This document shows positions 4,343 to 40,996 of a stretch of DNA of 64,000 nt, piece after piece. This DNA comes from Patescibacteria group bacterium (GTDB lineage Bacteria > Patescibacteriota > Patescibacteriia > PEXW01): the NCBI GenBank assembly GCA_041671325.1, contig JBAZBR010000002.1:137978-201977 (forward strand), given 5' to 3'. The notes under the pieces were generated by a model. It did not search any database. It was not told where the DNA came from and saw only the letters and a list, made by a program, of their open reading frames with translations. The first letter of the stretch is position 1. Every line of letters begins with the position of its first letter. A program made the position numbers and the translations under genes.

Positions 4343-4526
4343 GATGAGTTCAACCCCGATACCAGAATCGCTTGCGCAATTCGGTACGGGGCAGGCCCAT
4401 CTTGATTCCTTATGACTTCCGCTTCTCCTTAAACCCTAGAGACGTTTTAAGATCTTTAGAATTTAGCCCCTCCATATCAGTAAGAAAATTCTCGTCTCGA
4501 ACGACGATCTCACTTATGTCATCGTT

Positions 4527-4584
4527 CGGGACGAAAGCAGAGTTTAAGAAAATGTGAAATTTTCAGGGTACTCTGCAAACCTTA
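4527..4584. repeat. 58-bp direct repeat just 3' of a small membrane-protein gene, copy 1
   Basis: CGGGACGAAAGCAGAGTTTAAGAAAATGTGAAATTTTCAGGGTACTCTGCAAACCTTA. A second copy lies at 4938-4995 with 2 mismatches. A GCAGAG/CTCTGC stem encloses the A/T-rich loop. Confidence 0.6.
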
Positions 4585-4872: not shown

Positions 4873-4937
4873 GTTACACCCCTATACTTTAAAGTTATTT
4901 CTTTCTCATCTCGAGTAACCTTTTGATAAAGATTAAT

Positions 4938-4995
4938 CGGGACGAAAGCAGAGTTTAAGAAAATGTGAAATTTTCAGGTACTCTGCGAAACCTTA
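4938..4995. repeat. 58-bp direct repeat, copy 2
   Basis: Near-identical to 4527-4584. Confidence 0.6.
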
Positions 4996-5455: not shown

Positions 5456-6106
5456 GTTGGTCCAATTATCTTTGGCGAGTAAACCCGCCGCGATACTGTT
5501 GCCAACCTTATTGCCCTCCCCTCCAAATCACTAGATATAAATTCACCAAACCAATCTTGGAAAAAACAATTTATTCTCCGTAGCTTACTATCCTCCTTTC
5601 TTGCCTGGTCCCTAGCTTTACTAGCGGATTGCGTAGGAGAATAAAAAACGAGGTCCTCTGTTGAGAGAGCACCTTTATTGGATACCAAATAAATTGGCTT
5701 TTTCACTTGTCTGCTCTCTCTTTCAAACAAGTGACAAAACATGTAATTTATTAGTTTTTCAACCTAACAAAGCAGTATATATCAAGCAGGGAATACTGTC
5801 AAGACCAAGAATGGCTTAGATTAGCCAAAATGGCTAAGGTTAGCCAAAAAATACCCCCTCGGCCTTGGGCCACTCCCCCTTGGCAAGGGGGAGAAATCTT
5901 GCTTAAAATATGAAAGATTGCTTCGGTCGTTCCACTTCTGCGGGGCTCCCTCGCAAAGGCAGATAAAAAAAGTTTGGCCTTGTTAAATCCTACTTGAAAT
6001 AAAAATGGTCTTGAACTAAGTTAATCTTAGAAATCAAACCTTAAGTGTTCTTTTTACATTTTAAAGGTTGAGAAAACCACTAAAGCCATAATAACTGGAG
6101 GATGGT

Positions 6107-7761: not shown

Positions 7762-7992
7762 GTTTATTAATATAGTGGATATTAATAATAATGACAAAAA
7801 ATTTATATTGAAGTTTAACCACCTCTTGGGCAGGAGGTGGAAGCGGAGGAGACTCAAAAGGATTCTCCAATAATGTCGTCTTTGTCGTTATTCATTTCTT
7901 AATTCATATACCCTCAGGGGGAACAATTGACAGTGTACCTGTCCACAATTACCCTTAAGGTATACAAAAATGACCTTTGCAAAGGAGTAACT

Positions 7993-8293: not shown

Positions 8294-8525
8294 ATTGCGA
8301 GGGCCGTACTCGGCCAAAAGAAGTCATGTCTCCACCCCCCCCGCCTGCCTCCCGTCCAACCGCTTCGCGCTCGAAACGGGCGGGCCGCCTAATACTCGGT
8401 AATGGTGGGCAGGAGTATCGTTATGGTTGTAGGTTTTGGTTAAGAATTCCTCAAGGCCACGCCTCTTTACGATACAGAGATCTATGCCTAAACCTTATAG
8501 TCACAACCATTTTTTGAAGTGGGCA

Positions 8526-10516: not shown

Positions 10517-10690
10517 CCCTCTCCTGTTAGGAGAGGGTACGCGCCCGCCCGCCTTCGCAGACGAAGTACGGTGGGCAGGAAGCGAGGGCGAGGTTTCATT
10601 GCCTGTTACTGGGAAACTAATTTCTAAACTAAAAAATCCCTCACCCGGCCCCGCGGCCGCGGGGCCACCCTCTCCCAGAGGGAGAGGGGG
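10517..10690. repeat. GC-rich palindromic intergenic repeat (class 2)
   Basis: CCCTCTCC-TGTTA-GGAGAGGG, GGCCCCGCGGCCGCGGGGCC and CCCTCTCCC-AGA-GGGAGAGGG palindromes. Confidence 0.7.
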
Positions 10691-10755
10691 TTAGAAAAAT
10701 AATTAATTTCAAGCAAGTTTGATGCTCCTCCTTCGTTGCGACGAGGGATTTTGTT

Positions 10756-19765: not shown

Positions 19766-19792
19766 TTAGCACTCTTTAAGTTAGAGTGCTAA
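19766..19792 (+). promoter_or_regulatory. CIRCE operator (HrcA binding site)
   Basis: Perfect TTAGCACTC-N9-GAGTGCTAA, 15 bp upstream of hrcA. Confidence 0.9.
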
Positions 19793-20990: not shown

Positions 20991-21166
20991 CCCCTACATA
21001 CCGCCTCTCCTATATAGGAGAGGATGGCCCCGCGGCCGCGGGGCCAGGTGAGGTGGACGAATAAACAAATTCCTTATTTCCGAATTCCCTCCCGCCTGCC
21101 TTCGCCGGAGCGAAGTACGGCGGGCAGGCACCCCGACCCTCTCCTAGATGGAGAGGGGATAAAAAC
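20991..21166. repeat. GC-rich palindromic intergenic repeat (class 2)
   Basis: CCTCTCCTATATAGGAGAGG, GGCCCCGCGGCCGCGGGGCC, and CCTGCC...GGCGGGCAGG / CCCTCTCC-TAGAT-GGAGAGGG. Confidence 0.7.
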
Positions 21167-21623: not shown

Positions 21624-21630
21624 TCACATT

Positions 21631-21875
21631 ACCTCCTCTCCTATATAGGAGAGGATGCCCACAGGGCAGGTGAGGTGGGCGAATAAACTTATTCTTAATT
21701 TTCCAAGTAACCCTCACCCCCGCTTCGCGTACCCTCTCCCAGAGGGAGAGGGGGTAAAAATGCAAAGGATTACCACTTCTTTGCACTTCAGCCCACCCTC
21801 TGTCATTCCGACCGAAGCCCCGCTTGGCGGGGCGTAGTGGACCTGCCCGCCGAACTGGCAAGGCAGGTGGGGGAA
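21631..21875. repeat. GC-rich palindromic intergenic repeat cluster (class 2)
   Basis: CCTCTCCTATATAGGAGAGG, CCCTCTCCC-AGA-GGGAGAGGG and CCTGCCCGCC...GGCAGG. ORFs in this span are artefacts. Confidence 0.7.
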
Positions 21876-25302: not shown

Positions 25303-25579
25303 TCAAATTTCAATTAAGATTGATGATGCAACCATGAAAGGCGTTTATGCCAATATGATGAGCGTTTCCCATTCCAAAGAGGAATTTCTCTTGGATTTTT
25401 TGAATATCTACCCCTTACAACAAGCGGGGATTGCCACCTCTCGGGTAATTGTCTCGCCTGGGCATATGAAAAGGATAGTGAATGCCCTGCAGGACAATTT
25501 GAAAAAATACGAAGGCAGTTTTGGTAAAATTCAAGAAGCTGATGCGCCCACCAGCGGGGAAGTTGGTTTCCAGGGTTAA
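25292..25579 (+). CDS. DUF3467-like small conserved protein, copy A
   Basis: KGVYANMMSVSHSKEEFLLDF pattern. It is 88% nt identical to 33511-33801. The DUF assignment is from memory. Confidence 0.6.
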   Translation: MKPDQISIKIDDATMKGVYANMMSVSHSKEEFLLDFLNIYPLQQAGIATSRVIVSPGHMKRIVNALQDNLKKYEGSFGKIQEADAPTSGEVGFQG

Positions 25580-25600
25580 TAATAATTTAAAACATTTTAT

Positions 25601-25837
25601 ATGAAGAACAAATTAAATTCTCAACTAAAGAAGAAAATGTTGAGGTATATAAGGTACGACAGATTTTTACGCGAGTATCGAAATCAATTCATTTCCAGTT
25701 TTAAGAACGGTATAAAAACTCAAACCGCAAAAAAATTATTAACTAGCGATGAATTAACTAGAATTTCAGTCATGAATAAGCATTTAAAGAAATTAGAGCA
25801 ACAGTATATAATTTCTGTTCGTAAATTTATATTTTAA
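25601..25837 (+). CDS. hypothetical basic protein, 78 aa
   Basis: Short Lys/Arg-rich ORF. Confidence 0.35.
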   Translation: MKNKLNSQLKKKMLRYIRYDRFLREYRNQFISSFKNGIKTQTAKKLLTSDELTRISVMNKHLKKLEQQYIISVRKFIF

Positions 25838-25849
25838 TTATCTAATTTT

Positions 25850-26188
25850 ATGACTTGCCAAAACTGCGGGCATTTAAATCAAGAAGATGCAAAATTTTGT
25901 ATAAATTGCGGAAAAGTATTAGTAAAATCTATCGAACAAAAAGTAAATGCACAAACAGTGGTAACAGTTAATGATAGTAAGAACAAAAAAGTAAAAAAGA
26001 AACATTATGGTCAACTGGCGTTTATTTTTATTGTTTTTGCAACATTAATGCAGAATTCAACACCGGAACCGGACACCACAGGAAGGATTACTTTTTTTGT
26101 AATCCAAATATTATTAGCATTTTTTGGTATGTATTTCTTGGTACGTTGGATAATGTATTTATTTAAGAAAAAAGATTCAAAGAAATAG
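25850..26188 (+). CDS. zinc-ribbon domain membrane protein
   Basis: N-terminal CQNCG...CINCG and two C-terminal TM helices. Confidence 0.5.
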   Translation: MTCQNCGHLNQEDAKFCINCGKVLVKSIEQKVNAQTVVTVNDSKNKKVKKKHYGQLAFIFIVFATLMQNSTPEPDTTGRITFFVIQILLAFFGMYFLVRWIMYLFKKKDSKK

Positions 26189-26200
26189 AAAAGTTTTATT

Positions 26201-26290
26201 TCCTCCGCTTCCACCTTTACCTGCCGATGAGGCAGGTCCCGCCCGCCTCGCTCCGTGAAACGGAGCAGGTCGCCCACGGGGTGGGGTTTT
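26201..26290. repeat. array-module GC-rich repeat (class 1), left-most copy
   Basis: TCCTCCGCTTCCACC...CGGGGTGGGGTTTTT; shares its core with the other copies. Confidence 0.7.
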
Positions 26291-26295
26291 TAGCA

Positions 26296-26330
26296 AAAAG
26301 ATAAACCAGCACCTTGTGCTGGTTTGTAGA
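26296..26330 (-). terminator. terminator of cassette gene 1
   Basis: ACCAGCAC-AAGG-TGCTGGT hairpin, with a T-run on the minus strand. Confidence 0.55.
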
Positions 26331-26345
26331 TTTTGATAAGTCGAC

Positions 26346-26570
26346 TTAATGTGCCTGGCAGAGCGAAAGGCTTTGTTTTAGTTTTGCAACATCACCCTCA
26401 GTACCCCCGACAATTTCATAAATTACAGTACTGGTTGCTTGTTCTGTTTGTACAAGCCGTACGGGTAAAGGGGTAAGAGCATTTAATGACCCAACTGTTA
26501 GTTTAACTAACTTGTCCCATTCTTCGGGGGTTTCGACGTCACTTGAGTTCAATTGAGCGATCATTTTCAT
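26346..26570 (-). CDS. cassette gene 1: hypothetical protein, 74 aa
   Basis: GGAG SD; own promoter and terminator. Confidence 0.5.
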   Translation of the reverse strand: MKMIAQLNSSDVETPEEWDKLVKLTVGSLNALTPLPVRLVQTEQATSTVIYEIVGGTEGDVAKLKQSLSLCQAH

Positions 26571-26596
26571 TATCTCTTCTCCTGTGTTTTCGTTTT

Positions 26597-26640
26597 ATTT
26601 GACTTGATGTTAATTCGAAGTCTTTACCCTGTCAATCCTC
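26597..26640 (-). promoter_or_regulatory. sigma70-type promoter of cassette gene 1, fused to a class-1 repeat
   Basis: Minus-strand TTGACA-17-TAACAT. The -35 is the reverse complement of the repeat-initial TGTCAA. Confidence 0.55.
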
Positions 26641-26675
26641 CTCCGCTTCCACCTTAGGTAGGCGAGGGGTTTTTA
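26631..26675. repeat. class-1 repeat, short copy
   Basis: TGTCAATCCTCCTCCGCTTCCACC...GGGGTTTTT. Confidence 0.65.
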
Positions 26676-26678
26676 GAT

Positions 26679-26707
26679 TTGACATTTATAACTACCGATT
26701 GTAAAGT
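26679..26707 (+). promoter_or_regulatory. sigma70-type promoter of the GNAT gene
   Basis: TTGACA-17-TAAAGT. Confidence 0.5.
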
Positions 26708-26748
26708 ATTCCATTAAACATAAAAATAATTAGCTGTGGAGGTTTACA

Positions 26749-27165
26749 ATGCAATTTAGGTTTTACACTGAACAAGACTACGAAACCGTAGCGGGATTCT
26801 TCAAACAATCTGGCCAGTATGATCCAACTTGGGATACGGCCGAGAACCTTAAGGAAAAGATTACCCGGTTTCCGACCTCAATCATTGTTTGCATAGAGGG
26901 CGGCGAGGTAGTGGCAAGCGTCTTTACCATGGAAGACGGCTGGGGGACTTTCATTTATCGACTAGTTGTTCGGCCAGACATGCAAAAACAGGGCATAGGC
27001 AGGGCGCTGATGGCATTCGCGGAAATGACCTTGAAGCAAAAAGGCAAGAAAGAAGTCGCGATATTTGTCCATGACACCCGCCAAGACCTGCTCGAGTGGT
27101 ATGCGGACCAGGGTTATCTTTTTGATGACCCCAAGAGCTACCGCTCATTGTTCAAAAAACTTTAA
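26749..27165 (+). CDS. GNAT family N-acetyltransferase
   Basis: Acetyl-CoA binding motif (Q/RxxGxG/A: QKQGIGRALM). Confidence 0.8.
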   Translation: MQFRFYTEQDYETVAGFFKQSGQYDPTWDTAENLKEKITRFPTSIIVCIEGGEVVASVFTMEDGWGTFIYRLVVRPDMQKQGIGRALMAFAEMTLKQKGKKEVAIFVHDTRQDLLEWYADQGYLFDDPKSYRSLFKKL

Positions 27166-27189
27166 ATTGATTTGGGCGACCCTTATCCG

Positions 27190-27262
27190 GCCGCCCTTTT
27201 TTGTATTTCTTTTCCACTTTCACCTTCTCCTTGCCTCGTCCGCGGGGTATGGTTTTGAGAAT
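27190..27262. repeat. class-1 repeat, degenerate copy (TTGTAT replaces TTGTCA)
   Basis: TTGTATTTCTTTTCCACTTTCACC...CCGCGGGGTATGGTTTTG. Confidence 0.55.
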
Positions 27263-27278
27263 ATGGTAAAATAAAAAT

Positions 27279-27794
27279 ATGAAAGTTATTCTTTACATGG
27301 CAATTACCGCGAATGGCATGATCGCGAAACGCAATAATGACACGAGTTGGGTTTCCAAGGAGGAATGGAAAAGTTACAACGCAACCGTACTTCACGCGGG
27401 CTGTTTGGTCGTAGGCCGAAAAACCTATGACATCATGGTAAAGGAAGGTGAGTTTGCGAAGTTGAAAGAGGTCTTTGTCGTGGTTGTTAGCCATCAGGAA
27501 GTTGAAATGGTGGACCCGCTGCATCAGGTGGCTCATACACCACAAGAGGCATTGCAATTGCTTAAAGATTATCCAGAGGTTATTATTGGCGGTGGCGGGA
27601 ACATAAATAGTGAGTTTTTGAAAGAGAAGCTCGTTGACGAAATGTATTTAGATATTGAACCGAAACTTATTGGCAAAGGTATTCGATTATTTGAAAATCT
27701 TGATTTGGATTTTAATTTGGTTCTTCTTGATACAAAAGCCATTTCACCAAATGTGGTTCAGTTGCATTATAAAGTGATTAAGTCGGTTTCGTAA
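27279..27794 (+). CDS. dihydrofolate reductase-like protein (RibD C-terminal domain family)
   Basis: MKVILYMAITANGMIA N-terminus and VIIGGG motif, typical of the bacterial YwjB/DHFR-like family. Confidence 0.7.
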   Translation: MKVILYMAITANGMIAKRNNDTSWVSKEEWKSYNATVLHAGCLVVGRKTYDIMVKEGEFAKLKEVFVVVVSHQEVEMVDPLHQVAHTPQEALQLLKDYPEVIIGGGGNINSEFLKEKLVDEMYLDIEPKLIGKGIRLFENLDLDFNLVLLDTKAISPNVVQLHYKVIKSVS

Positions 27795-27836
27795 TTCTTC
27801 GCTTCCCCCTTCCTACGCCCGCGGGGTGGGATTTTG
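27795..27836. repeat. class-1 repeat, truncated copy
   Basis: CGCTTCCCCCTTCC...CCCGCGGGGTGGGATTTTGG. Confidence 0.55.
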
Positions 27837-27837
27837 G

Positions 27838-27975
27838 ATAAATGAATACATCCTCTCCTATATAGGAGAGGATGGCCGAAGGCCAGGTGAGGTTCACAAA
27901 AAACTAATTTCAAACTTTCCGAGTTCCCTCACTCGCCTACGGCACCCTCTCCCAGAGGGAGAGGGGATTTTTGGT
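27838..27975. repeat. class-2 palindromic repeat, copy A of a near-identical ~180-bp direct repeat (with terminator)
   Basis: CCTCTCCTATATAGGAGAGG...CCCTCTCCC-AGA-GGGAGAGGG; near-identical to 28549-28690. Confidence 0.75.
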
Positions 27976-27980
27976 AAAGC

Positions 27981-28012
27981 AAAAACCCCGAGGAAAATCC
28001 ACGGGGTTTTGC
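27981..28012 (-). terminator. conserved hairpin terminator of cassette gene 2
   Basis: CCCCGAGGAAAATCCACGGGG with a T-run on the minus strand; about 4 near-identical copies in the array. Confidence 0.65.
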
Positions 28013-28031
28013 AAAGAGTGTGTTCGGATAT

Positions 28032-28397
28032 TTATTCCGGTTGGTTACGCTTTACCATTTCGACCGGAACCCATTTTCCGCTGGCGAGTACCGCCTCTTC
28101 CAAACGTGCCGCTTCAGCCAGGCATTCGTCAAGTTTGGTGTAGGGCTTGTCGAGAGGATTGACCCTACAGCCAGAATAGGCCGAATGGGCCGTGCTGGGG
28201 TCAAGGTAATTGTAAAGGTGGAATACGGGATAAAGCGTCCCGTCTCCCAGTCCATCGCCTTTCCCATTGATATTGAGCCAGATCTCTTTCCGTATGAAAA
28301 TCGATGAGGCTTGAGTACCATCGGGTTTCCACAAAAAGCAACAACAGTGCTGATCGGCTACGAGCTGAGATGCAAAGTTTTCAGGAGGTTGGTACAT
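28032..28397 (-). CDS. cassette gene 2: hypothetical protein, 121 aa
   Basis: Own promoter and terminator. Confidence 0.5.
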   Translation of the reverse strand: MYQPPENFASQLVADQHCCCFLWKPDGTQASSIFIRKEIWLNINGKGDGLGDGTLYPVFHLYNYLDPSTAHSAYSGCRVNPLDKPYTKLDECLAEAARLEEAVLASGKWVPVEMVKRNQPE

Positions 28398-28453
28398 CTG
28401 TATTCTCCTTTTCTCCTAAAAATGTTTTTACTATTTGTAATTTGACTAAACAG

Positions 28454-28480
28454 ATTATCACAAAATAGTTTTATTGTCAA
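28454..28480 (-). promoter_or_regulatory. sigma70 promoter of cassette gene 2
   Basis: TTGACA-16-ATAATC with a TGTG extended -10. Confidence 0.6.
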
Positions 28481-28545
28481 CCCTATCCGCTTCCACCTCC
28501 TCGCCAAAAAGGCGGGCAAGCCCTCCGCCCGCGGGGTTGGGTGTT
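28474..28545. repeat. class-1 repeat
   Basis: TTGTCAACCCTATCCGCTTCCACCTCC...AAAAAGGCGGGCAAGCCCTCCGCCCGCGGGG. Confidence 0.7.
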
Positions 28546-28548
28546 GGA

Positions 28549-28690
28549 TAAATGAATACATCCTCTCCTATATAGGAGAGGATGGCCGAAGGCCAGGTGA
28601 GGTTCACAAAAAACTAATTTCAAACTTTCCGAGTTCCCTCACTCGCCTACGGCACCCTCTCCCAGAGGGAGAGGGGATTTTTGGTAAAGC
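28549..28690. repeat. class-2 palindromic repeat, copy B
   Basis: Near-identical to 27838-27975. Confidence 0.75.
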
Positions 28691-28725
28691 AAAAACCCCG
28701 AGGAAAATCCACGGGGTTTTTACAA
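28691..28725 (-). terminator. conserved hairpin terminator of cassette gene 3
   Basis: CCCCGAGGAAAATCCACGGGG plus a T-run. Confidence 0.65.
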
Positions 28726-28748
28726 AGAGAGTAGCTTAGTCGGAACAA

Positions 28749-29288
28749 TTATTCCGACCAGTAACGAGCGAAGCAGTCGCGGAAGTATTGGTTGTTACTG
28801 ATTTTGGCGATCCGCGTCGCTGCTTCAGAAGTCATCCACTGCATACGAACGGCCAGGGCGAGCATAAGGGCTTCGTCGGCCAGTTCGGGTAAGCCCGAAA
28901 AGGAGATTGCGAAGGGACCGTAATGATCGCAGACGATCATATTGCACAGTATGGCACCGGCGTACTTCTCGTTTTCGACGCGGGTCTGCCAGCTGCTCAC
29001 GGCCTCTTTCCCTCGCTTAACGAAATCAGCGATTAAGCGATCGGCTTTTTCGGTCGCAATGTTTGCGTACTTTAGCGTACCAATTGGCAGTTCGCCGATC
29101 GGTACTGTCAGAAGAGCCGGATTGTTGCTTATGTATTGCGGGCGATTGCTTGGGGTGAGCTTCATTACGAAGAATCCACCTCGCCGGTCTTTACGGTCGT
29201 AGGCTGCCGAGTTGCACATTTCAAGCAAGAGCTCTTCAACTGCTTCAACTACATTGTTGCGAAAGTTCTTGTCAACGATCTCGTTCAT
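28749..29288 (-). CDS. cassette gene 3: hypothetical protein, 179 aa, possibly GlcG/HbpS (DUF336)-like
   Basis: C-terminal GPFAISFSGLPELADEALMLALA resembles the GxxGVSGGxxxQDxxxAxAA motif; weak. Confidence 0.5.
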   Translation of the reverse strand: MNEIVDKNFRNNVVEAVEELLLEMCNSAAYDRKDRRGGFFVMKLTPSNRPQYISNNPALLTVPIGELPIGTLKYANIATEKADRLIADFVKRGKEAVSSWQTRVENEKYAGAILCNMIVCDHYGPFAISFSGLPELADEALMLALAVRMQWMTSEAATRIAKISNNQYFRDCFARYWSE

Positions 29289-29338
29289 GAAAAACCTCCA
29301 GTTTATCTTTCGTTTCTTGGTTTCTTTCTAAGTCACTT

Positions 29339-29367
29339 AATCTAGCAAAAAAGTTTATTGCTGTCAA
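29339..29367 (-). promoter_or_regulatory. sigma70 promoter of cassette gene 3
   Basis: TTGACA-17-TAGATT. Confidence 0.6.
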
Positions 29368-29437
29368 TCCTCCTCCGCTCTCCCTCCCCGCCCAAAAGGC
29401 GGGCAAGCCTTCCGCCCCTGCCCGCGGGGTAGAGAGG
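29362..29437. repeat. class-1 repeat
   Basis: TGTCAATCCTCCTCCGCTC...CCCAAAAGGCGGGCAAGCC...CCCGCGGGG. Confidence 0.7.
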
Positions 29438-29531
29438 TTAGGGTAAGGAATAACGTGTTTGACAGATTAGTAGCGCCATATTAAAGTTGTTCAACAAAGA
29501 AATCATTTGATCTTTATATCTTGGAGGTAGT

Positions 29532-29768
29532 ATGAAAGTGATTGTCAGTGAAAGAGAAGTAACCGGAGATAGGGGTTGCTATGCTAACCCACCGGTTGGC
29601 GCTTCAGTAATCGAAGGTGAGGAAATCCATTTTGCAAATGTTGACTTAACCGCGGATGGGGATAGTCTAAAAATCCGCATTGACAATGACCGGATGTGCT
29701 ATCTTTTTATTCAACGGGATGGAGATACCTTACGTATCAGCAATATCGGTTACGATGTTAAATCGTAA
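29532..29768 (+). CDS. plus-strand gene inside the array: hypothetical protein, 78 aa
   Basis: SD GGAGGTAGT; followed by its own terminator. Confidence 0.5.
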   Translation: MKVIVSEREVTGDRGCYANPPVGASVIEGEEIHFANVDLTADGDSLKIRIDNDRMCYLFIQRDGDTLRISNIGYDVKS

Positions 29769-29774
29769 ATTCAA

Positions 29775-29806
29775 GCGGGATTTCTCCTCCCGCTTTTTAT
29801 TAACGG
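29775..29806 (+). terminator. intrinsic terminator
   Basis: AGCGGGA-TTTCTCC-TCCCGCT followed by TTTT. Confidence 0.6.
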
Positions 29807-29823
29807 TCGGTAAATAATTCTAT

Positions 29824-29898
29824 GCTTCCACTTCCACGGCTTACGCCGTTCCCGCCCAAAGGGCGGGCAAGCCCTCCGCTAGCGGGGTGGGGTTTTTG
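29824..29898. repeat. class-1 repeat without an attached minus-strand promoter
   Basis: GCTTCCACTTCCACGG...CCCGCCC-AAA-GGGCGGG...GGGGTGGGGTTTTTGG. Confidence 0.65.
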
Positions 29899-29908
29899 GA
29901 TAATACAA

Positions 29909-29935
29909 AAACCGCTGGGCGAACCATACGGTTTT
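29909..29935 (-). terminator. terminator of cassette gene 4
   Basis: AACCG...CGGTT hairpin plus a T-run. Confidence 0.5.
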
Positions 29936-29957
29936 TAAAGATGTTGGCGTTGAAGGT

Positions 29958-30233
29958 CTATCGCGTTTCCACGAAGGTAAGCGTTCCTTCAAACACCCCG
30001 AACGAGCTGCTTTCCTGGAATAAGTAATTTTCGGGTTTTTCGTCCGCACGCATGGTACGGGTGAGAACCCACAGGTCGTCTTCTTTCCAGGTGGCGTTTA
30101 CCAGCTTCGTTCCTGCCGGTAATGCAATGGTTTCTTCGCCACCAAAATTGCGGACTCGCTGTTGCTTGGTACAACCACTGAAGCAACCGAAGATCAGCAA
30201 TACGGCCAGGGAAAGAATCAATGTCTTTTTCAA
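29958..30233 (-). CDS. cassette gene 4: small lipoprotein, 91 aa
   Basis: Signal peptide with lipobox FSG-C. Confidence 0.55.
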   Translation of the reverse strand: MKKTLILSLAVLLIFGCFSGCTKQQRVRNFGGEETIALPAGTKLVNATWKEDDLWVLTRTMRADEKPENYLFQESSSFGVFEGTLTFVETR

Positions 30234-30259
30234 AATACCTCCCGACTTTCTCGATGGTT

Positions 30260-30302
30260 TAATTTAATTTCGTGTAACCATAGATGATAGCATAAATAGA
30301 TA
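30260..30302 (-). promoter_or_regulatory. sigma70 promoter of cassette gene 4
   Basis: TTGACA-16/17-TATCAT. The -35 sits in one arm of a 19-bp inverted duplication. Confidence 0.5.
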
Positions 30303-30384
30303 TTTTGTCAACCCCGTTAGAGTTTAGTTTTAATGACTCTAATATATGGGGTAATTAATCATAATAACTCTAACGGGGTCAACC
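30297..30384. repeat. 19-bp perfect inverted repeat duplicating the repeat/-35 junction
   Basis: GTCAACCCCGTTAGAGTT (30297-30315) and AACTCTAACGGGGTCAACC (30366-30384). Confidence 0.6.
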
Positions 30385-30440
30385 CTCCTCCGCTTCCATC
30401 TCCCGCCCAAAGGGCGGGCAAGCCTCGCCCGCGGGGTGAG
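30378..30440. repeat. class-1 repeat
   Basis: CCTCCTCCGCTTCCATCTCCCGCCCAAAGGGCGGGCAAGCCTCGCCCGCGGGG. Confidence 0.7.
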
Positions 30441-30532
30441 GGAAAGATTGCTTCGCAAAACCTCGCAATGACGTAGAAAAAGAAAACCGACCCGCTCTAA
30501 GTGAGGGATCGGTAGAAATTAAACGGCGTCAG

Positions 30533-30850
30533 TTAGAATCTGGGTGGAAGTTCACCTTTGCGTAATCGGGAATATATTGCCGGTATCTGGGATGGCTTCG
30601 CATAGAATTCGATGCCATATGTCCCGACGTAGTCGCCGTCGTACTTGATAACCCACACATCTTCCATGGTGAGTTTGGCTTTTGGAAAGTCCTTTTTCGC
30701 CTCTTTAAAGAGGCGAAAGATATAGTCTAGGTAGCCATGCTGGAGGGAGGTCCTGATTATGACTAGCAGAGTTCCCTTTGGCCGGCCATTATATGGATAG
30801 CACTCTTTGATGAGCTCTACATCCTTCTGTTTCAACAAATCAGTTGCCAT
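30533..30850 (-). CDS. cassette gene 5: hypothetical protein, 105 aa
   Basis: SD AAGGAG; own promoter. Confidence 0.5.
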   Translation of the reverse strand: MATDLLKQKDVELIKECYPYNGRPKGTLLVIIRTSLQHGYLDYIFRLFKEAKKDFPKAKLTMEDVWVIKYDGDYVGTYGIEFYAKPSQIPAIYSRLRKGELPPRF

Positions 30851-30894
30851 ATCTAATTACTCCTTTTTGTTTTTGACAGTTTTGTTATAGAAGA

Positions 30895-30922
30895 ATCTAA
30901 CAAACCATCTGAAATGTGTCAA
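30895..30922 (-). promoter_or_regulatory. sigma70 promoter of cassette gene 5
   Basis: TTGACA-16-TAGATT. Confidence 0.6.
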
Positions 30923-31050
30923 TCCTTTCCGCTTCCACCTCCCCTCCTTCGCCCTTCGGCTTCCGCCTACGCCAAATGCTTCGGCGGACAAGTCGGAGGG
31001 CGGGTCGCCCAAAAGGCGGGCAAGCCCTCCGCCCGCGGGGTGTATTTTTT
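30917..31050. repeat. class-1 repeat, long form (about 134 bp)
   Basis: Adds CTTCGCCCTTCGGCTTCCGCCTACGCCAAATGCTTCGGCGGACAAGTCGGAGGGCGGGTCG before the common 3' half. Plus-strand UUCG tetraloop hairpins. Almost identical to 32400-32510. Confidence 0.75.
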
Positions 31051-31055
31051 AGCAA

Positions 31056-31092
31056 AACAAAAACCCCGGGAAGAATCCACGGGGTTTTGCAA
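31056..31092 (-). terminator. conserved hairpin terminator of cassette gene 6
   Basis: CCCCGGGAAGAATCCACGGGG plus a T-run. Confidence 0.65.
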
Positions 31093-31107
31093 AGGTCATC
31101 TTTTGAT

Positions 31108-31398
31108 TTAAAACTTCATGTAGAAACCCTGGAGGAGCATATACTCTACGTCGACATGTTCTGTGCCGACAGTGATTTTTTGGAGTATATCCAGGATTTC
31201 AGCATTGTAGTCGTTCGGCGTAGACACGAGCCTGATGTACGGTTGGCGTGCACCCCTGACGTCAATCACGTAACTTCCAGGGAATACCGTGATAACGTAT
31301 TCGACTTCGTAATCCTTGCCCCTGAAGGCATTTTGAATCTGAGACGTTAACTCCTCGATCTCGTTTTGTTCAAACCCGATAATTTCAATATTCGGCAT
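31108..31398 (-). CDS. cassette gene 6: hypothetical protein, 96 aa, possible tautomerase-superfamily member
   Basis: Start at MPNIEII with SD AAGGAGG; the N-terminal Met-Pro-x-I-x-I resembles 4-OT/MIF tautomerases. The longer track ORF runs through the promoter. Confidence 0.5.
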   Translation of the reverse strand: MPNIEIIGFEQNEIEELTSQIQNAFRGKDYEVEYVITVFPGSYVIDVRGARQPYIRLVSTPNDYNAEILDILQKITVGTEHVDVEYMLLQGFYMKF

Positions 31399-31444
31399 TT
31401 GAACCTCCTTTTCAAGTAAAATGTTCATGTTTGAATAACGAAAA

Positions 31445-31473
31445 AGTATAGCGTAAATTTTTATTTTTGTCAA
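31445..31473 (-). promoter_or_regulatory. sigma70 promoter of cassette gene 6
   Basis: TTGACA-17-TATACT. Confidence 0.6.
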
Positions 31474-31509
31474 TCCTTTTCCGCTTTTACTATTGATTTT
31501 TGGAATAAG

Positions 31510-31540
31510 AAAAACCCATCCATAGAGGACGGGTTTTCCA
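31510..31540 (-). terminator. terminator of cassette gene 7
   Basis: AACCCGTCC...GGATGGGTT hairpin plus a T-run. Confidence 0.5.
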
Positions 31541-31556
31541 ATGAGATATTTTGGTG

Positions 31557-31898
31557 TTAGGCGGTCACCGGATGATTTTTGAAGTAATCCGGATCGACGA
31601 GCAGCAGAATTTGCTCGCACGCACCAGCGAAGCTCTGCTCATCCACGATGCAACCCCATTTCCTCACGTACAGCCGGGAGAAATCCCAGGTGTTTATTTT
31701 GTTTTTCTCCAGGAGTTCTTCCAGGAGAAGGATGATCGCGTTATGGGTCGTGAACATTTCAGGGGCAGAGTAAACGTGCTCGGCTTTTTTCTGCTCGAGG
31801 CTCTGCTTTGTTCTTTCGAGCAGTTCCTGCAGGGCTCTGCGTAGCTCGTCGTTTTCAGGCAGAATAATATCAATTCCGCCCTTTGCCAGCTCTGTCAT
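31557..31898 (-). CDS. cassette gene 7: hypothetical protein, 113 aa
   Basis: Start at MTELAKGG with SD GAGGAGG, downstream of the promoter. Confidence 0.5.
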   Translation of the reverse strand: MTELAKGGIDIILPENDELRRALQELLERTKQSLEQKKAEHVYSAPEMFTTHNAIILLLEELLEKNKINTWDFSRLYVRKWGCIVDEQSFAGACEQILLLVDPDYFKNHPVTA

Positions 31899-31934
31899 GT
31901 GTACCTCCTCGTTTTTGTTTTCGTAATTTATAAC

Positions 31935-31968
31935 AGCAAAGTATTGCATAGTAAATAAATTTTGTCAA
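31935..31968 (-). promoter_or_regulatory. sigma70 promoter of cassette gene 7
   Basis: TTGACA-17-AATACT. Confidence 0.5.
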
Positions 31969-32027
31969 TCCTTTCCGCTTCCTCCTTTTGCCCTCTACGC
32001 TAGCGTGGTGTATTTTTTATCAAAGCA
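31963..32027. repeat. class-1 repeat, short variant
   Basis: TGTCAATCCTTTCCGCTTCCTCC...GCTAGCGTGGTGTATTTTTT. Confidence 0.65.
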
Positions 32028-32028
32028 A

Positions 32029-32058
32029 AAACCCCGGGAAGAATCCACGTGGTTTTTA
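32029..32058 (-). terminator. conserved hairpin terminator of cassette gene 8
   Basis: CCCCGGGAAGAATCCACGTGG plus a T-run. Confidence 0.6.
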
Positions 32059-32069
32059 GTAAAGAGGGT

Positions 32070-32330
32070 TTAGACAACATTGAGTGCTCGCTTGATGATG
32101 TCAACGGTAATTTCCAAGCTCATTATATTAATCCGAAGCAACAATTCAGTTTTCGGTAAGGCGTCTATGGCCGCGCACCATTCCGGATGCGTGTTCATTA
32201 GCGTTGCCCGCCCACCCTTATCCTTGTCAGCGGTTTTCCAAAAGAGATCTTTAATGTCTTGGATTTCTGCTGGCGTGCGTGCTTGTAAAAGTTTTGTTAT
32301 TTCATCAAGAGCTTTTTCAAAATCTGTCAT
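32070..32330 (-). CDS. cassette gene 8: hypothetical protein, 86 aa
   Basis: SD AAGGAAGG; own promoter. Confidence 0.5.
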   Translation of the reverse strand: MTDFEKALDEITKLLQARTPAEIQDIKDLFWKTADKDKGGRATLMNTHPEWCAAIDALPKTELLLRINIMSLEITVDIIKRALNVV

Positions 32331-32376
32331 TTATTGCCTTCCTTTGTTTTTGTAAATTTCACTTATTTAATAAGGG

Positions 32377-32405
32377 AACTTAACAAATAATAAAATTCTT
32401 GTCAA
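32377..32405 (-). promoter_or_regulatory. sigma70 promoter of cassette gene 8
   Basis: TTGACA-17-TAAGTT. Confidence 0.6.
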
Positions 32406-32510
32406 TCCTTTCCGCTTCCACCTCCCCTCCTTCGCCCTTCGGCTTCCGCCTACGCCAAATGCTTCGGCGGACAAGTCGGAGGGCGGGTCGTCCGCCCGCG
32501 GGATCCCGTG
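32400..32510. repeat. class-1 repeat, long form, second copy
   Basis: About 95% identical to 30917-31050 over the shared part. Confidence 0.75.
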
Positions 32511-32522
32511 GAATATTAAATC

Positions 32523-32553
32523 AGACCTCACAATTGTGAAGTCTGATCGAAAC
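32523..32553 (-). terminator. long perfect hairpin 3' of cassette gene 9
   Basis: ATCAGAC-CTCACAATTGTGAAG-GTCTGAT. The loop is itself palindromic; the T-tract is weak. Confidence 0.35.
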
Positions 32554-32574
32554 AGCAGTTTGTTTTGTTGATCC

Positions 32575-33072
32575 TCAGAATGAAACATGCTCCCGAATTA
32601 CCCGTACAATCTGTTTGGTCATCTCATCGAACCCAAACACGGGCGACCAACATGCCCAGATTTCATAGGGTTCAAGGTGAACACTCTTTATGCCTTGGAT
32701 TCCAAAGAGTGCTTTCACCAAACTGGTTTGCTTGTCCGGTTGGGCACCAGGATAGTGGAAAGAAAGGCGCTGTGCTTCAGTAATTGGCTCAGAAACATCG
32801 AAGTAGCAGTCGCTACGCCCTCCGTTCTTGCTCGTCAGAGCGATACGTAGATTTGGGTCCCAGTTCGTCCGTCGATTCATCGGAACCTCGCCGAGTTTAA
32901 GCATCCAGGTACCGGCCCTGACGAAAAATTTTCGTCCTGGGCAGCAAAGAAGCAGGTGCTTCAATAGGTTTGAAACGTACAACATAGTTACCCCATGCCT
33001 TGCGCTGTTGTTTGTTGGCTGTCTTTTGACGCAAGGCTGCGTATTGGGCAAGACAGATAATCCCAAACGCAT
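32575..33072 (-). CDS. cassette gene 9: hypothetical protein, 165 aa
   Basis: Start ambiguous: MRLGL at 33072 has a short leader and no SD; MLYVSN at 32985 has a weak SD. The track ORF runs upstream through the promoter. Confidence 0.4.
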   Translation of the reverse strand: MRLGLSVLPNTQPCVKRQPTNNSARHGVTMLYVSNLLKHLLLCCPGRKFFVRAGTWMLKLGEVPMNRRTNWDPNLRIALTSKNGGRSDCYFDVSEPITEAQRLSFHYPGAQPDKQTSLVKALFGIQGIKSVHLEPYEIWACWSPVFGFDEMTKQIVRVIREHVSF

Positions 33073-33088
33073 ATTTTTGTAACTGAGT

Positions 33089-33117
33089 ATAGTACCGTAC
33101 TTTTTGTTTTTTGTCAA
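33089..33117 (-). promoter_or_regulatory. sigma70 promoter of cassette gene 9
   Basis: TTGACA-17-TACTAT. Confidence 0.55.
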
Positions 33118-33150
33118 CCCTTTTCCACTTGAGCCCTTTACCCTAAAAAC
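33112..33150. repeat. class-1 repeat, degenerate right-most copy
   Basis: TGTCAACCCTTTTCCACTTGAGCCC. Confidence 0.5.
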
Positions 33151-33156
33151 AACGGG

Positions 33157-33190
33157 AAAAAATAGCCCCGAACCGGTGTTCGGGGCTTTC
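33157..33190 (-). terminator. intrinsic terminator on the minus strand
   Basis: GCCCCGAAC-ACCG-GTTCGGGGC plus a T-run. Confidence 0.6.
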
Positions 33191-33251
33191 AAGGAGGGAT
33201 ATAACTCACCAAGTGGTTATCCTTGGCGAAATCATTATAAGAAAAACGAAA

Positions 33252-33288
33252 TATTTGTCAAAAAAAAGGAGCCCCAAGGATGTCTTGG
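33252..33288 (-). terminator. intrinsic terminator on the minus strand
   Basis: GAGCCCCAAG-ACATCC-TTGGGGCTC followed by an 8-T run. Confidence 0.6.
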
Positions 33289-33510
33289 GGCTCACAAGGA
33301 AAGGAGGTCAGAATGAAAACACTGAAGTAGTACCGGAACTGCTAAGAAAGGAACCCGAGATCCGCGAACGAGAGAAGGAAGTATTTGTTTTAGCTATATA
33401 AAATATAATATAATCCTTTAAAGCCGTCAAATCACTTATAAAATCGTTAAGATTGTTAATAAGGCCCAATTAAACTAAAATGTATTTATCTCTTAATTAT
33501 TAAAAAACAT

Positions 33511-33801
33511 ATGAACCAACAACAGCAAATTCAAATTAAAATTGACGACACCATCATGAAAGGCGTTTATGCCAATATGATGAGCGTATCCCATTCCAAG
33601 GAGGAATTCCTTTTGGATTTTTTGAATATTTACCCGCTCCAGCAGGCTGGGATTGCCACCGCCAGGGTGATTGTCTCCCCAGGCCATATGAAAAGGATTG
33701 TGAATGCCCTGCAGGATAATCTGAAAAAATACGAGAGCAGTTTTGGCGCGATTAAGGAAGCTGATGCGCCCACCAGCGGGGAAGTGGGATTTAAGGGGTA
33801 A
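33511..33801 (+). CDS. DUF3467-like small conserved protein, copy B
   Basis: Paralog of 25292-25579. Differences are mostly synonymous. Confidence 0.6.
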   Translation: MNQQQQIQIKIDDTIMKGVYANMMSVSHSKEEFLLDFLNIYPLQQAGIATARVIVSPGHMKRIVNALQDNLKKYESSFGAIKEADAPTSGEVGFKG

Positions 33802-33915
33802 GTCTTATATCATCCTGAACCTGAGCTTGTCGAAGGTGAAGGATCTTCATAAAGTATGATATTTATTGAGATTCTTCACCCCGCGGTTGCGGGGTTCAGA
33901 ATGACAGAATAAAAC

Positions 33916-37327: not shown

Positions 37328-37380
37328 ACCCCTCACCCCCAACCCCTCTCCCTAAAGGGAGAGGGGCGTCAGAAGGGGTT
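37328..37380. repeat. GC-rich palindromic repeat (class 2, short)
   Basis: CCCCTCACCCCCAACCCCTCTCCC-TAAA-GGGAGAGGGG. Confidence 0.6.
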
Positions 37381-40757: not shown

Positions 40758-40996
40758 TCCCCTCACCCTCCAACCCCTCTCCGACAAAGGTGAGAGGGAG
40801 GTAAGTAGTTTTTTCTGTCATTGCGAAGGAGTGCCTGCCCGCCATCGTTTGTCTCAGGCGTTGCAGGCGGGAAACGATCGACCTGTCCGCCGTACTCGCT
40901 TGTCGAGGCAGGCGGGAGCAATCTGGTCTTCAATAAAACGAAAGATTGCCACGTCGTCCCGCCCCCGCGGCCGCGGGGGCGGGACTCCTCGCACTG
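40758..40996. repeat. GC-rich palindromic repeat cluster (class 2)
   Basis: CCCCTCACCCTCCAACCCCTCTCC...GGTGAGAGGGAGG, CCTGCCCGCC...GGCGGG, and CCCGCCCCCGCGGCCGCGGGGGCGGG. ORFs here are artefacts. Confidence 0.7.

Follow-up and report, generated by a model that had tools for sequence, protein, structure and literature searches.

A GC-rich repeat (class 1) marks the junctions of a variable gene island in the 64,000-nt stretch of Patescibacteria DNA analysed here (hereafter, the window). We conclude, with modest confidence, that this repeat is a BIME/REP-like mosaic of DNA hairpins that acts as a cassette-junction element and recombination breakpoint, and is neither an RNA gene nor a canonical integron attC site. 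This reading draws on direct observations of the anatomy, placement, orientation and conservation of the element in the window and its relatives, of one module that matches REPs, and of cassette homology breakpoints that coincide with the right arm of the element.

The window comes from a Kerfeldbacteria-like genome of the Patescibacteria (CPR). Its heat-shock genes lie on the plus strand in the order CIRCE operator, hrcA, grpE, hsp20, dnaK ... DUF3467, a gene for a 393-aa protein, and dnaJ; the 393-aa protein has a 100% identical counterpart in a metagenome-assembled genome named 'Patescibacteria group bacterium' and shares 77% identity with one from Candidatus Kerfeldbacteria. An island of ~8 kb (25.6-33.5 kb) splits this dnaK-DUF3467-dnaJ cluster and is bracketed by two copies of the DUF3467 gene (25304-25579 and 33526-33801) with 85% DNA identity. 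Relatives have a single DUF3467 copy, at the dnaJ-side end, and the duplication in the window might be a trace of an island acquired together with the DUF3467 copy of its donor. ORF and Pfam analysis revealed ~15 small island genes, including a GNAT, a RibD_C/DHFR-like gene, a zinc-ribbon protein, a lipoprotein and several genes without an assigned function. Most lie on the minus strand, where each has its own TTGACA-17-TAnnnT promoter (scoring 10-11 of 12 in a promoter scan, with 17-nt spacers) and most have a hairpin terminator. At least three plus-strand genes (GNAT, the 78-aa gene and the DHFR-like gene) also have promoters of their own, as judged from the promoter scan and our own reading. 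Island DNA had no match in plasmid and phage collections, and a PADLOC search with the island proteins of no assigned function returned no matches.

Individual cassettes showed further features. The 91-aa lipoprotein cassette (29958-30233) matches the phage family phrog_12728 (E=1.8e-26), to which no function is assigned. In the DHFR-like cassette (27264-27281) the extended -10 box TGGTAAAAT ends 6 nt before the ATG, so the mRNA is predicted to be leaderless; the same leaderless-type layout is found in the relatives L130 (3870-3892, TGCTAGAAT-6 nt-ATG) and L138 (4430-4454, TGTATACT-6 nt-ATG). Finally, a perfect sigma-70 promoter (TTGACA-16-TATAAT, minus strand, 33261-33234) is followed ~40 nt on by a strong terminator (33187-33164), and the segment 33155-33261 (minus strand) may encode a small RNA of ~75 nt, which would contain CCCUCCUU. 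A further promoter-terminator unit lies just upstream of this candidate (33260-33430, minus strand).

The class-1 repeat is present in 13 island copies (c1-c13; Table 1), one at each of the 13 cassette junctions. All 13, including the degenerate c10 and c13, lie on the plus strand regardless of gene orientation, for which the chance expectation is ~2^-12. The other 56 kb of the window hold two copies only, both on the minus strand at 7.8-8.4 kb beside an IS1595 transposase gene. All 15 copies are intergenic, so the family is extragenic and multi-copy, as REPs and BIMEs are. Matches to the family greatly exceed chance: allowing up to two mismatches, CCGCTTCCACC was found 31 times in the window (12 expected), and CGCCCGCGGGGTG, allowing up to three, 23 times (9 expected); the good arm matches all cluster on the plus strand at 26.2-32.5 kb.

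In each copy, a C-rich left arm, CCGCTTCCACC (fuller form (CC)TCCGCTTCCACCT), and a G-rich right arm, GCGGGGTGGGG (fuller form CGCCCGCGGGGTGGGG), enclose up to three GC hairpin modules or none. T4-6 follows the right arm in 8 of 12 copies; c6, c8 and c12 have no T-run. The GC content of the copies is 0.5-0.75 (0.65-0.69 for c9 and c12) vs 0.43 for the window, and base composition is skewed along the element: C exceeds G in the left half of every copy, and G exceeds C in the right half of 11 of the 12 measured (the exception is c6, with C-G = +1). Length ranges from 36 to 128 nt and changes by whole modules (e.g., c9 corresponds to c5 with a 63-nt hairpin insert). The first-pass annotation had described the two long forms, c9 and c12, as about 95% identical. 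The repeat pair is real, and the figure is valid only for the shared part because the copies diverge after 91 nt of 100% identity (30917-31007 = 32400-32490, -35 box included), beyond which c9 has an additional 20-nt module and a different tail, while c12 has neither that module nor a T-run.

Among minus-strand cassettes, a copy usually sits in the spacer between the terminator of one cassette and the promoter of the next. The element does adjoin the -35 hexamer of these minus-strand promoters, as first proposed. The TGTCAA beside the left arm, which had been assigned to the repeat, is in fact the -35 of the adjacent minus-strand gene and is missing at c1, c3, c4 and c7, where the left neighbour is on the plus strand.

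Table 1 Class-1 repeat copies and associated features of the window and its relatives.
Feature	Position	Strand	Description
Variable island	25580..33510	.	Defined from ORFs, Pfam, promoters and terminators; syntenic variable islands in relatives
c1	26202..26291	+	Left arm CCTCCGCTTCCACC, two perfect GC hairpins, right arm CCCACGGGGTGGGG + T5; after Zn-ribbon gene (+)
c2	26636..26674	+	Short form; between divergent -35s at 26630-26635 (-) and 26679-26684 (+)
c3	27209..27256	+	Degenerate short form, between GNAT and DHFR-like genes
c4	27795..27835	+	Short form, 0 nt from DHFR-like stop codon
c5	28481..28545	+	Arms + REP-like module GGCGGGCAAGCCCTCCGCC
c6	29368..29439	+	Variant arms (CTCTCCCTCCCC / GGGGTAGAGAGG) + REP-like module
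c7	29818..29897	+	Arms, ACGGC-TTAC-GCCGT hairpin, CCCGCCC-AAA-GGGCGGG, REP-like module, T5
c8	30383..30442	+	Arms + CCCGCCC-AAA-GGGCGGG; no T-run
TTGACA -35 box, 105-aa gene promoter	30917..30922	-	-10 TAGATT at 30894-30899
c9	30923..31050	+	Long form: left arm, 63-nt M1 hairpin, 20-nt M2 (REP-like), right arm, T6
c10	31474..31509	+	Degenerate; left arm CCTTTTCCGCTT and tail TTTTTGGAATAAG only
c11	31969..32018	+	Short form with T6
c12	32406..32511	+	Other long form; first 85 nt = c9; no M2, no T-run
c13	33118..33144	+	Left-arm remnant (CCCTTTTCCACTT...), adjoins -35 at 33112-33117
s1	7819..7851	-	Perfect CCACCTC/GAGGTGG hairpin; upstream of queH promoter
s2	8330..8415	-	Relative-type right arm (GGCAGGCGGGGGGGGTGG); downstream of IS1595 transposase gene
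RAYT-like Y1 transposase gene	L125/L127 710-1264; L137 1747-2205; L144 3001-3411		

Other repeats share the window with class 1. A second, composite hairpin family (CATCCTCTCCTATATAGGAGAGGATG; CCCTCTCCCAGAGGGAGAGGG) occurs at 27812-28010, 28522-28720, 20999-21165, 21630-21760, 10667-10696, 37336-37366 and 40767-40797. Two of its members form a 199-nt block (27812-28010 vs 28522-28720, 98% identical) downstream of two unrelated cassette genes, and related copies flank hsp20 in the heat-shock operon. A 67-nt insertion (30312-30378) separates the promoter -35 from c8; it has 13-bp terminal inverted repeats (CCCCGTTAGAGTT ... AACTCTAACGGGG) with GTCAACCC on both sides, and looks like a MITE with its target-site duplication. 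A third family ('...CTCGCAATGAC' / 'GTCATTCTGA...') is found at 30446-30472, 33812-33846 and 33871-33906 and in the islands of the relatives L128 and L132; in relatives it adjoins small GIY-YIG nuclease genes within the same island. Outside the island, an exact 42-nt direct repeat (4526-4567 and 4937-4978, 411 nt apart) lies among small membrane-protein ORFs.

The syntenic loci of relatives were obtained via homologues of the 393-aa protein and contig look-ups. A scan of genome contigs with GGCGGGCAAGCCN{4,16}GCGGGGTR returned only random single matches in GC-rich genomes, none with the left-arm motif, and a metagenome scan with TGTCAAYCCTN{2,4}CCGCTTCCACC returned two unrelated contigs and no relatives. 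The dnaK-DUF3467 interval held a different set of small genes in every relative examined, with cargo that includes APH, DHFR-like, MazE-Fic, NUDIX, methyltransferase and GIY-YIG genes as well as genes without an assigned function. Elements of like build are present in the same-locus islands of L130, L132, L133, L138 and L139, and all of them point from dnaK towards dnaJ. They carry GCTTCCCCC(T)GCGG as the left arm and GGCGGGGG(T)GG as the right, the latter followed by GGATAAG or GGAATAAGAAAAC and never by a T-run in these five genomes; outside the islands, the arm motifs are almost absent. Relatives' contigs often end within the interval, and in public assemblies of the window's organism contigs end exactly inside repeats at 27974, 28580 and 30946 (ENA ERZ27249449; Logan SRR6484324 and SRR18595301); the repeats account for the breaks of this clade's assemblies at the locus.

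Comparison of cassettes between genomes revealed where their boundaries lie. Three cassettes are each common to two genomes with different neighbours: MazE-Fic (L130/L132; 89% identity vs ~81% for core genes), DUF5678-protease (L132/L139) and NUDIX (L132/L138). In all three, homology starts directly 3' of the G-rich arm. The DHFR-like gene common to the window, L130 and L138 gave a match of ORF length, and the element that follows it by 0-3 nt in the window (c4) and L130 carries the unusual CTTCCCC and CCTACGC in both. Promoters and terminators are also common to unrelated genes: a promoter of the window is 87% identical to one in L130, and a terminator block of 47 nt is 100% identical between L130 and L139. 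This block, GGAATAAGAAAAGACCCATCTGGTGAGAGATGGGCTTTTCAAAGA, was located at L130 6439-6485, L139 1768-1814 and L132 1374-1417 (98-100% identical, with core genes at ~80%), downstream of non-homologous genes. The junctions thus form conserved frames within which the ORFs change. The suggestion of a recombination site, the last alternative of the first-pass annotation, is supported by these comparisons and is the one that fits them best. Breakpoints at the elements could also simply reflect fast decay of the element beside conserved cassettes. Furthermore, gene and element do not always move together, because a homologue of the 179-aa cassette gene (68% identity) in another bacterium stands alone between unrelated genes with no element adjoining it.

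A link to REP sequences emerged from the same locus. REPs are defined by a GT[A/G]G tetranucleotide 5' of a palindrome (PMC3686654), and REPs, REPINs (PMC3116915) and BIMEs have RAYT (Y1, HUH) transposases as their partners. In the two closest relatives, L125/127 and L137, a Y1_Tnp gene lies between DUF3467 and the 393-aa gene, and a further lineage, L144, has a homologue (57% identity) within the same interval, dnaK-DUF3467. Against NCBIfam REP_Tyr_transpos, the L127 and L137 proteins reach 68-74 bits (below the cut-off of 80) vs 34-37 bits against IS200, and many of their homologues, among the matches listed, carry the JGI name RayT. The RAYT-like gene is flanked by inverted hairpins, GTAG(G/C)N-G[GC][CA]GAGC-TTG-CTC[GT][CG]C, that fit the REP definition and are close to Pseudomonas REPs listed in PMC3686654; in L144, canonical inverted REP doublets lie on both sides of the gene.

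The 22-nt REP consensus of this clade (GTAG-SY-GSMGRGC-TTG-CYCKSC, up to three mismatches) matches the window three times, with 0.01 expected, and the matches fall in c5, c7 and c9 only, all on the minus strand; its 16-nt hairpin part matches c6 as well. Other REP-like matches, at 5474-5585, fall within an ORF, and we regard them as chance. The window module (GGAGGGC-TTG-CCCGCC, minus strand) shares the CTTG loop and core of the Pseudomonas REPs (PMC3686654, e.g. GCGGGCTTGCCCGC), and the elements resemble REPs and BIMEs as short extragenic GC palindromes built into higher-order mosaics. They differ in several respects. The tetranucleotide beside the matching hairpin in c5, c7 and c9 is GCGG or CTAG, and GT[A/G]G seems not to be conserved in the window copies. 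By our own reading of the minus strand, made without a tool, GTGG occurs in c1, and GTAG with palindromes directly after it in the L130 copies. The REP-like units occur one per element and on one strand, with no inverted or tandem doublets; the copies are grouped at cassette junctions and not scattered; and they have extra conserved C-rich and G-rich arms as a frame. Searches of the 64-kb window by tblastn and Pfam found no RAYT or Y1_Tnp gene, and no tyrosine recombinase or other candidate recombinase gene for the element was found there. No match named from the window genome was among the best 120 of 404 in a search with the RAYT-like protein. The short island stretches available for L125/127, L137 and L144 (i.e., where RAYT and REPs are visible) hold no class-1 arrays. 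A RAYT gene flanked by a GGAGGGCTTGCCCGCC hairpin in this genome would favour the BIME/REP reading.

The first-pass annotation had instead put forward readings at the level of RNA and transcription. That each repeat is a plus-strand antisense small RNA, driven by TTGACT/TTGACA and ended by the T-run, is extremely improbable. The -35-like hexamers near three copies do exist, at the corrected positions 26599-26604, 28442-28447 and 30873-30878, but they do not make credible promoters: a -10 partner was found for the 28442 hexamer only, with a score of 9 of 12. Plus-strand folds compared with shuffles reached z-scores of -2.7, yet the range (-0.02 to -2.7, mean ~-1.6) is modest; minus-strand folds had a mean z of ~-0.6. 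RNAalifold found zero consensus pairs among eleven short forms from five genomes, and the arms of a copy pair with each other no better than with foreign arms (-13.2 vs -13.1 kcal/mol, permutation p=0.39; p=0.37 for window copies alone), so the check for covariation that had been proposed came out negative. Arm complementarity is generic pairing of C-rich and G-rich tracts that slips between registers. An Rfam scan at gathering and E-value thresholds returned nothing relevant for the repeat, and variation in length by insertion and deletion of whole modules is also at odds with an RNA gene. Two structural details had been assigned differently. The supposed C(UUCG)G tetraloops of the long form are CUUCGG motifs (30954-30959 and 30979-30984) that lie inside a 17-bp helix or beside the apical loop in the minimum-energy fold, and the CCCGCCC-AAA-GGGCGGG stem-loop belongs to c7 and c8, c9 having CGCC-CAAAA-GGCG in its stead. 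Thus, a promoter of its own, a covarying structure and a known family were each sought for the repeat and not found, and on the results for folding, covariation, arm pairing, Rfam, promoters and placement we reject the small RNA at the level of sequence. Termination fares better and is still unlikely as the function of the element, i.e., as a plus-strand terminator or insulator against antisense read-through from the dnaK operon or plus-strand cassettes. The island does sit within a plus-strand heat-shock cluster, folding is better on the plus than on the minus strand, and most window copies have, like rho-independent terminators, a GC-rich stem-loop followed by a U-tract; a terminator scan made weak calls at the right ends of six (c1, c3, c4, c7, c9 and c11), and some plus-strand termination in the window copies is plausible. 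However, the T-run is not conserved in relatives, the terminal hairpins are weak (5-7 pairs), and strong bidirectional terminators are already present 10-20 nt further on. A plus-strand gene precedes just 4 of 12 copies (c1, c3, c4 and c7), and two of these four genes, GNAT and the 78-aa gene, already have terminators of their own; placement downstream of a same-strand gene combined with conservation in orthologous elements was not observed. The conserved sequence of the left arm, the multi-branched body and the module mosaic are also left unexplained, and insulation would at best be a local side effect. Very improbable, finally, is a left arm that serves as an operator or activator site for a regulator common to all cassette promoters. 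The conserved CCGCTTCC is indeed found 6-9 nt away from the -35 in eight minus-strand promoters, but the same arm follows plus-strand genes with no adjacent promoter (c1, c3, c4 and c7), it has no dyad symmetry, and its spacing from the -35 ranges between 2 and 14 nt among copies and relatives, which makes an operator at a fixed position unlikely. HrcA, the regulator that had been named, is not a candidate because the only CIRCE operator of the window lies at 19766-19792, and none is found at the repeats.

A reading nearer to recombination, which we regard as rather unlikely, is that the elements are attC-like sites of an integron-type array, with a recombinase elsewhere (tyrosine or another site-specific type) and crossover at the 3' end of the G-rich arm; under it the array would be labelled a CALIN, because the integrase is not nearby. 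The likeness is considerable. As in a CALIN, the island has an array of at least two sites in a single orientation, and a single directional, hairpin-prone site goes with each cassette. Conserved ends enclose a variable middle, shared cassettes begin directly beyond the right arm, and the cargo is small accessory genes with functions typical of integrons (GNAT, DHFR-like, APH, NUDIX, and MazE-Fic or toxin-antitoxin). Right ends that resemble GTTRRRY are also found (GTTGGAT in c5, GTTAGGG in c6 and GTTAGAT in L130), but they are limited to c5, c6 and a few copies in relatives, and the RYYYAAC partner box is missing, with an AAC...GTT pair in c5 only. The apparent 'GTCAAY' box is the -35 of a real promoter, and copies after plus-strand genes have no AAC box. 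Reading all copies for R'' (RYYYAAC) and R' (GTTRRRY) core boxes and for L''/L' pairing revealed neither R''/R' nor L''/L' symmetry. A Phage_integrase domain was found neither in the island genes, nor in ORFs of at least 120 aa outside the island, nor within 10 kb of relatives' islands, and no IntI gene adjoins the array. Because the R''/R' boxes and an integrase are both lacking, we rejected a canonical attC and did not file the array as one. The island differs further in that almost all cassettes come with a promoter and a terminator of their own and most genes run antiparallel to the sites, and a single fixed crossover does not explain why promoters and terminators (e.g., the identical L130/L139 terminator block) are shared between unrelated genes.

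Modular intergenic repeats of similar architecture exist in other bacteria. Pneumococcal BOX (boxA-boxBn-boxC) and Neisseria Correia elements likewise have fixed terminal modules around variable internal ones, and are intergenic, foldable, and near promoters or terminators; they are spread over the whole genome, with no tie to cassette junctions. We know of no sequence relation between either and the class-1 repeat.

Returning to the BIME/REP-like mosaic, we propose that a RAYT-type Y1 (HUH) transposase with single-stranded DNA as its substrate would have seeded the hairpin modules, which it may still move or may have moved in the past, and that insertions and deletions may have reshaped them further. 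The arms, promoters and terminators that cassettes have in common could then offer portable homology or break sites for cassette gain, loss and exchange, and such exchange at the junctions may be homologous, site-specific or HUH-mediated. In the window genome, the T-run would turn the right arm into a weak plus-strand terminator as a side effect. A bolder version, to which we give a low probability, is that the island is an integron-like gene-capture platform, in which directional hairpin elements are cut and joined as single-stranded DNA by a RAYT-type HUH (Y1) enzyme, the gene for which lies at the edge of the dnaK-DUF3467-dnaJ interval in three related lineages; if so, a 'domesticated' REP transposase would be the cassette recombinase.

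Patescibacteria (CPR) have tiny genomes, and to our knowledge the ways in which they acquire accessory genes are poorly understood. The locus described here is a hot-spot conserved inside a heat-shock cluster, which holds different self-promoted small genes in every relative examined, whose junctions are occupied by directional REP/BIME-like mosaics, and at which a RAYT-like gene recurs. If the elements mediate cassette exchange, they would represent a compact, integrase-independent route of gene flux in CPR, and would give a function to REP-RAYT systems, the biology of which remains a matter of debate.
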